Assembly (NCBI GenBank): GCA_944324645.1
Contig: CALUXB010000001.1
Coordinates: 428,837 to 492,836 of the forward strand
Length of the DNA stretch: 64,000 nt
Direction of reading: 5' to 3'
Source: an uncultured Elusimicrobiales bacterium
GTDB taxonomy: Bacteria; Elusimicrobiota; Elusimicrobia; Elusimicrobiales; Elusimicrobiaceae
Shown: positions 6,874 through 48,680 of the stretch, piece by piece
How the letters are laid out: each line of letters starts with the position of its first letter
Position numbering within the stretch: the stretch's first letter is position 1
Program-made: the position numbers and the translations under genes
The notes under the pieces: generated by a model
What the model saw: only the letters and a program-made list of their open reading frames with translations
Databases searched by the model: none
What the model was told of the DNA's origin: nothing

Positions 6874-7659
6874 TTACGGTTGGAAAGCCGGATCTGTGGC
6901 ATTGTAGCCAAAGCCGCTTTGGCCCATTACGCCCCCATCCGTAAAGCCGGCCGGTGCTGCGCCGTTTGCCGTGTTGTTTTGATACAAAGGATCATTTTGC
7001 AGGGCTTGGGCTTGTTGAATTTCGGCCGCAGGGGTTTGCGCCGTGTCGGCAGGCAGGGCCGCATTCTGTGCAGGGGTCGTTTGAACTCCGGCCGAATAAG
7101 CCGGATAAGCGGTTGTATTTTGCCCTATAGTGTAAGCCGCTGCCGGTGCTGTGGGCGAGGCAGCCTGCCAAGCATCTTCTGCCGGGGCTTCTTCTTGTGT
7201 AGCTGGGGCCGCTTTCATTTGCCGGGCGGGTTTAGTAAGGCTTTTGGAGCCTTTAGCGCCGGTTTTTTCTTGGGAATGCCCCAGCGCTTCCAAAGCTACG
7301 GCGTGGGCGCTGTCGTCATTTAAGCGCGGCAGAATGTCATTGCGAAAAGCGGGATAATCATCTCTGTCTATATATTCTTGAGAGATAGGCTGCTGGGTGT
7401 ATGTTTTTGTTACTTCTTGTTCTGTTGCACTTTTTTTCGTTTTAGGTTTGGGATATTGAACGGAATATACATCAGAGAGAACAACTTCCGTTACCGGTGT
7501 GTCGTCCGCCTCTTGCGGCTCTTCGGTCAGACAATAGTCCACACGTTCTGCCGTAGAAGCGTCTTGGTGTTTATCCACCCGGGTTTCACAGGTAGATACA
7601 GCCGCCAGCACCGGGGCCGCGGCCACGCACAATACAAAAAAAGAAAACAGTTTTTTCAT
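6874..7659 (-). CDS. Secreted hypothetical protein with a small Cys-containing domain and a long Ala/Pro/Gln/Thr-rich tail
   Basis: Signal peptide MKKLFSFFVLCVAAAPVLA after GGAG. Confidence 0.75.
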   Translation of the reverse strand: MKKLFSFFVLCVAAAPVLAAVSTCETRVDKHQDASTAERVDYCLTEEPQEADDTPVTEVVLSDVYSVQYPKPKTKKSATEQEVTKTYTQQPISQEYIDRDDYPAFRNDILPRLNDDSAHAVALEALGHSQEKTGAKGSKSLTKPARQMKAAPATQEEAPAEDAWQAASPTAPAAAYTIGQNTTAYPAYSAGVQTTPAQNAALPADTAQTPAAEIQQAQALQNDPLYQNNTANGAAPAGFTDGGVMGQSGFGYNATDPAFQP

Positions 7660-7792
7660 AATTACTCCGTACATACGAAGATACTTTATTATACAAAAAC
7701 TGGGTCTGTTGGCAATACAAAATGCGTACATTTTGTTGGAAAGTAGAAAACGAAAAATTGTTTCCCAATAGATTTAGAAAGGGCTTGCTTTG

Positions 7793-7838
7793 TTTTTTTT
7801 TTTTGATAAATTTTATCGGAAGATAAAATTTATCAAAA
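7793..7838. repeat. T12 tract plus perfect 17-bp inverted repeat (pilin upstream element, copy A)
   Basis: T12 at 7793-7804. TTTTGATAAATTTTATC (7801-7817), GGAA loop, GATAAAATTTATCAAAA (7822-7838). Confidence 0.95.
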
Positions 7839-7850
7839 GAGGTCCCCAAA

Positions 7851-8447
7851 ATGAAAATGCTGTTAGAGCGCAAAATAGCGGGGTTTACGCTTATTGAACT
7901 GTTAGTGGTAGTGTTGATTATAGGTATTTTGGCAGCGATTGCACTGCCGCAATATCAGAAAATTGTGGCAAAAACCCGAGTAAGTACCTATTTGCCCGTT
8001 TTAAAAGCTTGGGCCGAAGCAGAAGAACGTTATTTTATAGCTAATGGAAGTTATCCTCCATCTTCCAGCAATGCGGAAGAAATTGAACAGTATTTAGATA
8101 TAGAGTTGTCTAAGATAGTGGAAAATGACAAATCTATGATTGTTATGTCTTTAAAAAATAATTCGTTCTATTCATCTGTTTTGATGAAGTTTTTTGGTGT
8201 TGGTCACTCTAAAATTGTGATTTTATCAAAGATGTTGCAAGGATCGCGTTTATATGGAAATTTATCAACTGAAATTGGTTGTATGGTAATGGACGAGGAG
8301 ACGTTAGATATTTGTACAGCAATATGTGGTCATCAAACTGTGGGGAGAGTCTTTTTTTATGACGAATTTGGTTGTTTAATAGGTAACGGAAATCCTCAGG
8401 CGTATCCAAGAGGCTCCTTTTTATCTGTAGATCCTGCATATAAATAA
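7851..8447 (+). CDS. Type IV pilin-like (PilE-like) protein
   Basis: G|FTLIELLVVVLIIGILAAIALPQY with E5; RBS AAGAGG; visibly AT-richer than flanks. Confidence 0.9.
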   Translation: MKMLLERKIAGFTLIELLVVVLIIGILAAIALPQYQKIVAKTRVSTYLPVLKAWAEAEERYFIANGSYPPSSSNAEEIEQYLDIELSKIVENDKSMIVMSLKNNSFYSSVLMKFFGVGHSKIVILSKMLQGSRLYGNLSTEIGCMVMDEETLDICTAICGHQTVGRVFFYDEFGCLIGNGNPQAYPRGSFLSVDPAYK

Positions 8448-8452
8448 GCCTT

Positions 8453-8489
8453 AAAAAACCCCCGCTTGTCAGAGCGGGGGTTTTGTTTT
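8453..8489. terminator. Bidirectional terminator between the pilin gene and adhE
   Basis: AAAACCCCCGCT-tgtcag-AGCGGGGGTTTT. Confidence 0.8.
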
Positions 8490-47308: not shown

Positions 47309-48064
47309 ATGAACGGACCGAATGCGAATCTGACTCCGTGGATAACGGAGAAATTTATTTCCGCTGCGCCTAAAGCCGCCGCCCAGGCATTAGGTGCGCT
47401 GGCCACCTATGAAGCGGTATTGCTGTTAAAACCGCTGAAAGCACAATATATGGTGGCTTGTTTGGAACCAATGGAATGTGGCAAGGCAGCCGCTATTTTG
47501 CGCAGGCTTCCTGCCCGGCAGGCAGCCCACGTGCTTTCGCGCTTGGATTTGCGCCAAGCTGCGAAGATATTTGCGGCGTTTTCTGTGCCGCAGCGGGAGA
47601 AAATGAAAATGTTGCTTTCTGCTTCTTTGCGTACGGCTTTGGAAGGGGTGGACCGTTGGCCTAAAAACAGCGCCGGGGCAAGAATGAAAACCGATTTTTT
47701 AGTATTTAAAACGGAAGCCAAACTGTCTGAAATAGTGGAAAAATTAAAAATTCTGCCGCGCAAAAAATTGCCGGCTGCTTGTTTTATAACCGGGCGGGAC
47801 GGCAAGCTGAAAGGGTTTATCCGTACGGCAGAGTTGGCTTTTTACACACTAGAGAGTACAGCCGGTTCCGTAATGAGTGAAGTAAAAGCGGTTTTAGCTT
47901 CTGCCCCGCTGGAACAAACACAAAAGATTTTTGACGAAGGGCAGCCCTTGGTGCCTGTTACAGATGAAAACGAAGTTGTATTAGGCGTTATTGCGCCGGA
48001 GCACGCCGTGGCGGTCCCAACGGCGCGCAAGAAACGGTTCGGTTGGTTTGGTAGTATCTGTTAA
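47309..48064 (+). CDS. MgtE intracellular N-domain plus CBS pair, no membrane domain
   Basis: Helical repeats, then AGARMKTDFL, FITGRDGKLKGFI, PVTDENEVVLGVI. Confidence 0.7.
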   Translation: MNGPNANLTPWITEKFISAAPKAAAQALGALATYEAVLLLKPLKAQYMVACLEPMECGKAAAILRRLPARQAAHVLSRLDLRQAAKIFAAFSVPQREKMKMLLSASLRTALEGVDRWPKNSAGARMKTDFLVFKTEAKLSEIVEKLKILPRKKLPAACFITGRDGKLKGFIRTAELAFYTLESTAGSVMSEVKAVLASAPLEQTQKIFDEGQPLVPVTDENEVVLGVIAPEHAVAVPTARKKRFGWFGSIC

Positions 48065-48072
48065 AAGCCTTG

Positions 48073-48121
48073 TTTTTTTTTTTTGATACATTTTGTTTAT
48101 GAACAAAATGTATCAAAAAAA
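48073..48121. repeat. T12 tract plus perfect 20-bp inverted repeat (pilin upstream element, copy B)
   Basis: T12 at 48073-48084. TTTTTTTGATACATTTTGTT (48078-48097), TATG loop, AACAAAATGTATCAAAAAAA (48102-48121). Confidence 0.95.
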
Positions 48122-48680
48122 CATTCTTTTTCTTCAAAAACTCTCTAAATTGAAAATAAGCGCGTTTAATGCCGTATCTCTTTTTAAAATTAAATGCGCT
48201 TGTTGGCGCTGCACGGGCTTTACATTAATAGAATTATTAGTCGTAATTTTGATTATTGCTATTTTGTCTGCAGTTGCTTTACCTCAATATCGCAAGGCGG
48301 TGGATAAAGCCCGTTTTGCTGAAATACAATTGATTGCCCGTGATTTGTACCAAGCGAATATACGTTACCAGTTAGCAAATGGCGGCAGCGATCTTGTTCT
48401 GTATGATAAATTAGATATAGAAGCCCCGTCTGGTTTTGTATATGACGAAGGAACTTCCACCTGGAAAAAGGGAGAGATAAAGCCCGTAAAAATATTTATG
48501 CCCAATGCCCAAAACATTTACATTTATTGGTATCCTTCTGGCAAAGATATGAATTTAGAAATTAGCTTGGCTGCTCCATATCGGGGAGTTCGGTGCGCTT
48601 ATCATAATGACAGTTATGTAAAAAGTTTATGCGAATCTGCCGGGGCAACGGCGGATAACGGATATTTTCTTCTTCAATAA
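48099..48680 (+). CDS. Type IV pilin-like (PilE-like) protein, start uncertain
   Basis: G|FTLIELLVVILIIAILSAVALPQYRKAVDKAR; AT-rich; nearest in-frame ATGs (48099, 48108) give a leader of about 40 aa. Confidence 0.85.
   Translation: MNKMYQKNILFLQKLSKLKISAFNAVSLFKIKCACWRCTGFTLIELLVVILIIAILSAVALPQYRKAVDKARFAEIQLIARDLYQANIRYQLANGGSDLVLYDKLDIEAPSGFVYDEGTSTWKKGEIKPVKIFMPNAQNIYIYWYPSGKDMNLEISLAAPYRGVRCAYHNDSYVKSLCESAGATADNGYFLLQ

Follow-up and report, generated by a model that had tools for sequence, protein, structure and literature searches.

Ahead of two pilin genes in a 64,000-nucleotide stretch of DNA from an uncultured Elusimicrobiales bacterium (the window) stands a run of twelve T residues (T12) that leads into a perfect inverted repeat. 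We found this element to recur throughout the pilin family of the source genome, and its best explanation as a whole, to which we assign a probability of about 0.7, is a promoter module shared by that family, in which the T12 forms part of the spacer and a palindrome is attached. The source genome (G000; other G-numbers denote genomes of related species) comprises 1.51 Mb in 9 contigs with 48% G+C and is 91% complete; the window corresponds to C1:428837-492836, and the assembly of the source sample is ENA ERZ28613423. The two pilin genes of the window, together with their elements, are referred to as copy A and copy B.

A candidate promoter module of a pilin gene family

A pattern search of the source genome recovered 58 copies of a module of ~75 bp, where an earlier reading made from the letters of the window (the sequence-only reading) had described two. 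The consensus is aaGGgC-TTGAC(T)/TTGCA(T)-nn-T12-GATA(A/C/G)ATTTTGCg-TATG-AGCAAAAT(T/G/C)TATC-A5-7, with a tract of exactly T12 in 45 of the 58 copies and of T8-T11, T13 or T15 in the rest. These modules hold 55 of the 56 A/T homopolymers of at least 10 nt in the genome. A motif-based search of open reading frames (ORFs) by regular expression counted 94 pilin-like ORFs, ~6% of genes, with 56 lying directly behind an element and 38 without one; the remaining two elements are also 5' of pilin-like genes, which were missed by the regular expression or are frameshifted. The motif is strongly enriched at prepilin genes, as the sequence-only reading had anticipated, being neither limited to two copies nor equally common before non-pilin genes.

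To place the module in a wider context, we counted the pattern T-NN-TAnATT with a run of at least nine T in a sample of 201 genomes of the phylum. Genomes from two genera of the family have tens of copies each, and those in the rest of the sample have 0-3, approximately the background level given by a reversed-pattern control. An exact scan of GTDB species genomes returned gut Elusimicrobiales metagenome-assembled genomes, 'uncultured bacterium' records and one Eggerthellaceae-labelled bin. Independent ENA assemblies show the T12 again, as do more than 20 species, which disposes of the assembly artefact that had been considered a danger to the original proposal. The labelled bin, 'Eggerthellaceae bacterium H07618-L1_cleanbin_000027' (CAVHDF01 records), holds many element copies and is probably mislabelled or contaminated with Elusimicrobiales contigs. 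The sole A/T homopolymer of at least 10 nt outside the pilin modules of the source genome is an A12 at C4:8913-8924, situated by a terminator-like hairpin (AACAGCGTTCTAAAAGAACGCTGTT-T7).

We read the module as a promoter of the sigma-70 type, with a candidate -35 hexamer TTGACT or TTGCAT, a 16-nt spacer (2 nt, T12 and GA) and a predicted extended -10, TGATAAATT. For comparison across species, 89 extra copies were fetched from ten other species of the genus, giving 147 copies from 11 genomes and 76 distinct sequences, in which TGn-TAnATT is invariant and variation is confined to the two 'n' positions. The 16-nt spacing is modal in 8 of the 11 genomes, namely all those with at least two fetched copies, and the three single-copy genomes have 13 or 17. 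Further loci were fetched later from more species, including G001 and G005, and here the 16 nt is reached by compensation: T12 plus 2 nt in most species, T11 plus 3 in G015 and G005, and T10 plus 4 in G001. That 16 nt is kept through differing combinations argues for selection on total spacing, with the T-run as the varying part. The copies carry the TGn and TAnnnT of sigma-70 extended -10 promoters, and the modal 16 nt lies within the 16-18 nt expected between such a -10 and its -35; copy B (11 nt) is an exception. An extended -10 promoter in the left arm of the inverted repeat had been proposed in the sequence-only reading, and it fits the -35 at 16 nt, the invariant TGn-TAnATT and the position of the start codon. 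The A/T-rich segment upstream of the -35 would also be part of the module, and the predicted transcription start falls in the centre of the palindrome, 7 nt past the -10.

Two 5' architectures are built on this module. In type L (copy B and 52 others here, and most fetched copies of G011, G017 and G019), an ATG lies in the loop of the palindrome. In 53 of the 58 copies, its offset from the G of GATA is a constant +14, which puts its A 7 nt past the -10. This ATG is in frame with G/FTLIELLVV behind a leader of 16-47 amino acids (aa) and is usually the sole start codon of the leader; the right arm then forms codons 2-6 (S/N/C-K-I/M-Y-Q) of the prepilin leader M-x-K-I/M-Y-Q-K. The sequence-only reading had missed that the loop ATG serves as the actual start codon of most copies, in which the right arm is coding. 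Because the ATG sits at the predicted transcription start, a Shine-Dalgarno sequence is impossible at that position, and the ATG offset, taken together with this, predicts leaderless mRNAs for type L. In type S (copy A and two others here, 24 of 24 fetched G015 copies, G006, G023, G024 and part of G007), there is no loop ATG, and A5, GGAAGG or GGAG, and an ATG ~46 nt from GATA precede a short leader of the form MKN..GG/FTLIELL. The palindrome is retained in type S with its right arm untranslated, which indicates that it is kept independently of coding.

Some type-L leaders are of unusual form. A subset (C1:108636, C5:12186, C1:413696, C1:419860, C2:284263 and others) has leaders of 40-47 aa, far above the usual length of prepilin leaders, with an extra segment between K-I/M-Y-Q-K and G/FTLIELL (e.g. 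..RRFALFVFNCFLLSFSKNLRTRRVCG or ..GGILRRLLGRPWAAKNHFWPVVCGG) that is conserved in G011. At C5:15500 (minus strand), the right arm is followed by A5, not A6, and the product reads MRKMYQK-stop, while the paralogue at C5:12186 is intact; this could mean that the A-run of the leader is a further slippage site, acting at the level of translation, or that the copy is a pseudogene.

The position of the predicted start also bears on whether the inverted repeat works in RNA. An mRNA hairpin controlling translation or stability had been one of three models of the sequence-only reading, and the fold is indeed strong and places the start codon of type-L copies in its loop. However, the left arm is the -10 and lies 5' of the predicted start, so that the mRNA has the right arm only, and both arms would be transcribed only in read-through from the upstream gene. 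A search of Rfam 15 returned generic hairpin hits far below threshold and no family match. We consider the RNA leader extremely improbable and reject it, and we infer, with some uncertainty, that the palindrome is a DNA-level element and not an RNA element.

Tract length, replication orientation and locus history

Within the candidate promoter, the T12 would set the geometry, and slippage would change the length of the spacer and thereby dial or switch each gene independently. A pure homopolymer such as T12 is expected to slip. Consistent with slippage, paralogues whose flanks are nearly the same have tracts of 8 to 17 nt, and T9, T10, T11 and T12 all occur in G015. The length also differs between samples at four of five loci with 100% identical proteins, a small sample made up mostly of non-modal loci. 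At C5:18861, three assemblies, including one made from the sample of the window itself, have T13 and a fourth has T12; the other three differing loci have T11 and T13 (C1:199408), T15 and T13 (C4:87586), and CAC+T10 and CA+T12 (C1:381855). Copy A has T12 in three assemblies from different samples. Exact-protein look-ups for three T12 loci and one T13 locus returned the source sample alone or no match. The claim that the homopolymer is variable thus holds, in this small and biased sample, as length polymorphism between strains with identical alleles. As we read these sequences, 16 nt would be the working state and slippage would yield weaker or OFF variants. In the Logan contig ERR4096553, the orthologue of copy A has a T in place of the G between TTGCTTT and T12, giving a continuous T16 with the total length preserved. 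This T is either a genuine variant, in which case the slippery tract has become longer, or an error at the end of the contig.

The modules are uniformly oriented with respect to replication. GC skew is positive all along C1 and negative on C2 and C4-C7, and it changes sign on C3 where dnaA is found (C3:54407-54889). All 58 elements are co-directional with replication, their sense strand being the G-rich leading strand. A crude gene set, used as the baseline, is ~57% co-oriented, and the chance of 58/58 is ~1e-14; among pilin genes without the element, 31 are co-oriented and 7 head-on. In other species, the listed copies share one strand per contig, except on one mixed contig (G008:C15). The co-orientation could stem from high expression, from selection against inversions among the 58 repeats, or from a role of the hairpin or the tract that is specific to one strand.

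The history of individual loci was followed at the slot of copy A, between a divergent gene (6874-7731) and adhE. The slot holds an orthologous type-S pilin in G011 (C-terminal domain 68% identical), a type-L pilin in G017, a T12 promoter without palindrome in G008 and an interrupted T5-C-T8 spacer in G020, and the pilin bodies of the last three are not orthologous to copy A. In G041 (G041:C5, 1290-1400 of the fetched stretch), the pilin body has been cleanly deleted, and a decayed module with T7, GATAAATTCTGTTTATGGACAAAATTTATC, a 9-codon ORF (MDKIYQKIC-stop) and a terminator remains. Syntenic slots with replaced or lost bodies argue that the slots are old, and 5' modules that look homogenised within species indicate concerted evolution.

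Replacement of bodies behind a hairpin might also point to a recombination site, with a hairpin or lox-like core through which a recombinase or transposase moves or swaps pilin cassettes. The 13-bp inverted arms around a 4-8-nt spacer resemble tyrosine-recombinase core sites, the strict orientation bias is like that of single-stranded DNA (ssDNA) transposons, one strain has unrelated DNA right upstream of the tract, and the slot of copy A supplies both the exchanged bodies of G008, G017 and G020 and the promoter-plus-leader remnant of G041. We nevertheless regard recombination as very improbable, and the corresponding hairpin model of the sequence-only reading gained little support. The profile PF01797 (Y1 HUH transposase) had no match in the 91%-complete genome, with control genomes positive, which rules out an IS200/IS605 or REP/RAYT-type ssDNA element. 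The arms vary and the central spacers differ in both sequence and length, so that strand exchange would fail, and copy A is at the same locus in G000 and G011. Moreover, each gene has a complete promoter, which makes an expression site unneeded, and the 150-200 bp of shared 5' sequence suffices for ordinary homologous recombination. A lox/FRT/dif-like tyrosine-recombinase site was dropped for the same kind of reason: arms are present, but the central regions differ (GGAA, TATG, GTATGA; 3-11 nt).

One rearranged copy was seen among the assemblies. Scaffold_38101 (1-100) of ENA assembly ERZ16268229 and G000 C1:199300-199400 share the same pilin protein and downstream gene, but the DNA upstream of the T-tract on the scaffold is unrelated and absent from G000, with T13 on the scaffold vs T11. 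The breakpoint is at the promoter module.

Constraint on the palindrome and its candidate roles

The right arm is constrained at the level of nucleotides even where it is translated. In a codon-use test on 52 type-L genes, the arm uses CAA at 48 of 48 positions, TAT at 44 of 44, AAA at 46 of 46 and ATT at 30 of 32, compared to genome-wide shares of 54%, 70%, 80% and 58%, respectively. The equally conserved FTLIELLVVVLIIGILAA codons vary freely among synonyms, with a modal-codon share of just 0.39-0.84. Since the right arm and FTLIELLVVVLIIGILAA face the same gene conversion and only the right arm is frozen, the arm is evidently constrained as DNA.

The two arms also change together. Across 76 distinct 42-mers, 90.2% of cells pair, and the covariation score is 0.091, compared to 0.053 for shuffles (0 of 500 reach 0.091) and 0.02-0.044 for slid controls, with both-side changes in 43 cells vs 16.8 expected. 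The outer 10 bp vary at two positions only; in the left arm, -13 is the 'n' of TGn and -10 is base 3 of the hexamer, and RNA polymerase reads these two least. The six self-complementary arm variants are GATAA/TTATC, GATAC/GTATC and GATAG/CTATC, as well as GGTAA/TTACC (G001, G012, G193), GCTAG/CTAGC (G005) and GCTAA/TTAGC. In a blind prediction on GCTAA/TTAGC, the tracked base matched in 4 of 4 copies of G193, 1 of 1 of G195 and 1 of 6 of G001; arm tracking is strong, not absolute. Mismatches are common in the inner arm pairs, affecting 27 of 76 at column 18 and 43 of 76 at column 19. A single 30-nt palindrome geometry fits 127 of the 147 copies at a fixed position relative to the -10 and +1, as is expected of an operator; loops are 3-8 nt long, and loop or central spacing lengths overall are 3-11 nt.

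Covariation of this kind is informative about two further readings of the symmetry. The right arm could be an extended -10 of the opposite strand (TGATAAATT), acting as an antisense promoter or as a decoy for RNA polymerase, as the bottom strand reads T5-7-GATAAATT and type-L copies have TTTACA 18 nt upstream of the bottom-strand -10, in the complement of the conserved D-V-K codons. Two independent -10s, however, need no covariation of their free positions, yet these co-vary, and we judge a mirror promoter very unlikely. It is also distinctly unlikely that the palindrome has no function of its own and is a relic spread by gene conversion among paralogous 5' modules, together with hairpin-templated mutation. 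The 5' modules do look species-specific (all fetched G015 copies have MKNV..GG, and 13 of 16 G017 copies have ..PAGKxxG, most often PAGKNAG), and several species keep the promoter without the palindrome. A relic is harder to reconcile with outer 10 bp that are near-invariant across two architectures and many species, or with synonymous freezing in the right arm only, when neighbouring conserved codons share the same gene conversion.

Our tentative preference, at somewhat less than even odds, is that the palindrome is an operator for a shared dimeric regulator, itself putative, with arms homogenised by hairpin formation. A palindrome over the -10 and +1 in all promoters of a regulon is classically an operator, and the putative regulator would bind across the -10 and +1 of the whole pilin regulon. 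A hairpin on the lagging-strand template would meanwhile allow templated correction to copy changes from arm to arm, a process that is established for quasi-palindromes in E. coli. As any perfect palindrome of 13-20 bp folds on the lagging-strand template, an operator can be reconciled with the base pairing that is suggested by the mirrored changes and the variable spacing. As to known operators, FNR/CRP-type (TTGAT-N4-ATCAA), Fur-box, CodY-box and IHF consensus sequences were considered and dropped on spacing.

The main alternative to the operator, though an unlikely one, is a structural switch that works without protein. Here a cruciform under negative supercoiling or an ssDNA hairpin would hide or expose the -10: the -10 would be mirrored at +3 to +16, and the promoter would fold on itself, aided by the T12/A6 flanks, making the expression of all these pilins dependent on DNA topology or replication. 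In support, the two positions that RNA polymerase ignores are exactly those at which the right arm follows the left, a loop or spacing of 3-11 nt is tolerated by hairpins, and pairing reaches into the T/A runs to give stems of up to 20 bp (-18.5 kcal/mol). In all 58 copies, the strand that bears T12 is on the lagging-strand template. On the other hand, quasi-palindrome correction gives like covariation without any selected structure, the frequent mismatches of the inner pairs speak against a maintained stem, and co-orientation with replication is also expected of highly expressed genes. We know of no natural bacterial regulon under such a structural switch. If it were true, a layer coupled to topology or replication would lie atop the gene-by-gene T-tract dial, and leaderless copies would translate half of the structure as K-I-Y-Q.

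Whichever role applies, a self-complementary site of 30-44 bp on +1 that is under nucleotide-level constraint even where it is translated poses a testable question. The arms co-vary at exactly the positions that RNA polymerase ignores, which means that an operator and a cruciform can be told apart with compensatory mutants. Being short and apparently sigma-70-compatible, the module is amenable to tests in E. coli though the hosts are uncultured.

Several observations weigh against the module as a mutable promoter with a palindromic operator. First, most loci have the same uninterrupted T12 in G000 as in G011 (~83% DNA identity), and copy A keeps it in three samples, so that its length may mainly represent one fixed working state and switching may be infrequent. 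The comparison between samples drew mostly on non-modal loci, which biases the count toward variation. Second, mirrored changes in both arms are unlike what is expected of a protein operator, and 5 of the 6 GCTAAATT copies of G001 with a readable right arm are mismatched at the tracked base. Third, the arms are not equally far apart everywhere: N10 prevails, yet every G023 copy has N9 and a single G011 copy has N11. Fourth, G008, G020, G021, G163 and G221 have the T-tract promoter without the palindrome; since the promoter is kept without it in several species, the palindrome would be an add-on that is dispensable for promoter function. Lastly, the promoter, the leaderless start and any switching are predictions from the comparison of sequences. 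Of the three models in the sequence-only reading, the homopolymer promoter with a palindromic operator is nonetheless the best and is partly supported, with its switching and its operator both putative.

Known systems and the two copies in the window

The closest known system is the vlp family of Mycoplasma hyorhinis, each of whose members has a poly-A tract in its promoter (PMC10502178). Like vlp, the pilins described here are a multigene family of surface proteins in which each gene has its own conserved 5' module with an A/T homopolymer in the promoter. A tract between the -35 and -10 in each family member and variation of its length in identical alleles, as in vlp, were both found. In vlp, insertions and deletions in the tract switch each gene independently, whereas tract-length variation here is known from assemblies. 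The differences are otherwise of cargo, lineage and architecture: vlp genes encode lipoproteins of Mollicutes, while ours are pilins of Elusimicrobiota in a far larger family (~58 genes), with T12 in a 16-nt spacer, an extended -10, a palindrome centred on +1 and predicted leaderless start codons.

A second precedent is sabA of Helicobacter pylori, where a promoter-proximal T-tract acts as a 'rheostat' and slipped-strand length changes tune the binding of RNA polymerase (PMC4081817). This tuning is achieved via DNA geometry, with no dedicated regulator (PMC4081817). Our module likewise has a promoter-proximal T-tract of variable length, from which tuning may be supposed. The sabA tract adjoins the -35 and aligns UP-like elements, whereas the tract here is the -35/-10 spacer itself. 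In addition, sabA is one of few such promoters in H. pylori (PMC4081817). Here, dozens of paralogues carry one stereotyped module.

Several other systems share single features with the module. Phase-variable repeats in promoter spacers are found in Bordetella fim2/fim3 (poly-C), Neisseria porA (poly-G) and opc (poly-C), Haemophilus hifA/B (TA repeats) and Treponema tpr (poly-G), in which tract length sets promoter strength. As in our module, an adhesin or pilus gene has the repeat within or next to its core promoter, but those cases involve one to few genes and pathogens, and to our knowledge none of them joins the tract to a conserved palindrome or a leaderless start. The RDRM of Deinococcus, which is bound by DdrO, and LexA boxes are palindromic operators on core promoters in regulons with leaderless mRNAs. 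They likewise have a fixed palindrome over the -10 and +1 across many promoters and a start codon at or near +1. In contrast to these operators, the arms here co-vary, the spacing varies, the site is 30-44 bp of almost pure A/T and the cognate regulator is putative. Promoters of the phage N4 virion RNA polymerase form hairpins with 5-7-bp stems and serve a phage polymerase, and Horwitz and Loeb reportedly engineered an artificial cruciform-regulated E. coli promoter in 1988. Our module resembles both in having an inverted repeat over the -10; supercoil-dependent extrusion is a feature of those systems and a prediction here.

Literature searches on Elusimicrobia pilin promoters returned nothing relevant and no publication describing the module. 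The E. minutum genome is reported to contain abundant pilE-like genes. What appears to be new here is the host lineage, the size of the family, the pilin cargo and the predicted leaderless starts, as well as a co-varying palindrome that would be centred on +1 and the absolute co-orientation with replication. If expression is tuned by tract length, this non-pathogenic gut commensal lineage would have one of the largest families of contingency loci known. It could thereby generate a combinatorial diversity of the pilus surface, something documented so far mainly in pathogens (Mycoplasma, Neisseria, Bordetella, Helicobacter).

Re-reading of the window confirmed the T12 and the perfect inverted repeat at both copies, as well as the three positions at which their arms differ, every change being mirrored. 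In copy A, the candidate -35, TTGCTT, is followed by TG and then the T12; in copy B, the TTG abuts the tract. The features of both copies are collected in the table.

Table 1. Features of copies A and B, in window coordinates
Feature	Position	Strand	Remark
Copy A candidate -35 hexamer TTGCTT	7785..7790	+	16 nt 5' of the -10; family consensus TTGACT/TTGCAT
Copy A T12, core of the 16-nt spacer	7793..7804	+	spacer 7791-7806 = TG + T12 + GA
Copy A predicted extended -10 TGATAAATT	7804..7812	+	hexamer TAAATT at 7807-7812; TGn-TAnATT invariance
Copy A palindrome, 13-bp arms around loop GGAA	7805..7834	.	ssDNA hairpin and covariation
Copy A left arm GATAAATTTTATC	7805-7817		
Copy A loop GGAA	7818-7821		predicted transcription start ~7819-7820, inside the loop
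Copy A right arm GATAAAATTTATC	7822-7834		followed by A4, 7835-7838
Copy A predicted 5'UTR, ~32 nt	7819..7850	+	type S; right arm, A4, Shine-Dalgarno AAGAGG (7837-7842)
Copy A prepilin gene, 198 aa	7851..8447	+	ATG 7851; leader MKMLLERKIAG, then FTLIELLVV
Terminator shared by copy A and convergent adhE	8453..8489	.	GC-rich hairpin between A- and T-runs; sequence reading
Copy B T12	48073..48084	+	TTG 48070-48072 abuts the tract
Copy B predicted extended -10 TGATACATT (TGA-TACATT)	48084..48092	+	
Copy B palindrome	48085..48114	.	T/A flanks extend the stem to 20 bp, 48078-48121
Copy B left arm GATACATTTTGTT	48085-48097		
Copy B loop TATG	48098-48101		ATG = 48099
Copy B right arm AACAAAATGTATC	48102-48114		followed by A7, 48115-48121
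Copy B prepilin gene from the loop ATG	48099..48680	+	predicted leaderless; A of ATG 7 nt past the -10, no Shine-Dalgarno

Both proteins have N_methyl domains above the cut-offs of PF07963 and TIGR02532 (31.8 and 29 bits, respectively, for copy A). Public gene calls start copy B at the loop ATG, and its leader of 39 aa is unusually long (MNKMYQKNILFLQ...CWRCTG), followed by FTLIELLVV. As ssDNA, the hairpins reach -14.1 kcal/mol (z = -6.9) in copy A and -18.5 kcal/mol (z = -7.8) in copy B relative to shuffles. In copy B, the TTG lies 11 nt from the -10, and the family consensus has 5 more bases (CATTG/ACTCG) before the tract; with a spacer 5 bp short, this promoter must lean on its extended -10 or is weakened. 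A simple promoter scan left the pilin promoters of both copies uncalled, their -35 hexamers matching at most 3 of 6 positions. Upstream of copy B, the stop codon of an MgtE-like gene ends at 48064, 8 nt before the start of T12.

Neither inverted repeat is an intrinsic terminator, in agreement with the sequence-only reading, as the A/T-rich stem has 2-3 G:C pairs, with a T-run 5' and an A-run 3' on either strand. A simple terminator scan flagged copy B owing solely to the downstream CATTCTTTTT, and flagged the minus-strand version of the 3' hairpin of copy A.

The other pilin genes of the window lack the element, as had been stated, and the window holds just two T-tracts of at least 10 nt. Within the family, copies A and B have the highest A+T content (36% and 37.5% G+C), the mean G+C of the C-terminal domains of element-bearing pilins being 42.9%, vs 48% for the genome. 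The 38 element-less pilins (e.g. window 38921, 39384, 39889 and, on the minus strand, 46041) have MKKG-type short leaders and 47.8% G+C, compared to that 42.9%. Upstream of copy A, a near-consensus promoter (TTGCCA-16-TATAAT; window 7688-7715, minus strand) belongs to the divergent gene, which encodes a low-complexity exported protein, and stands back to back with the copy A promoter, ~70 bp from the pilin -35.

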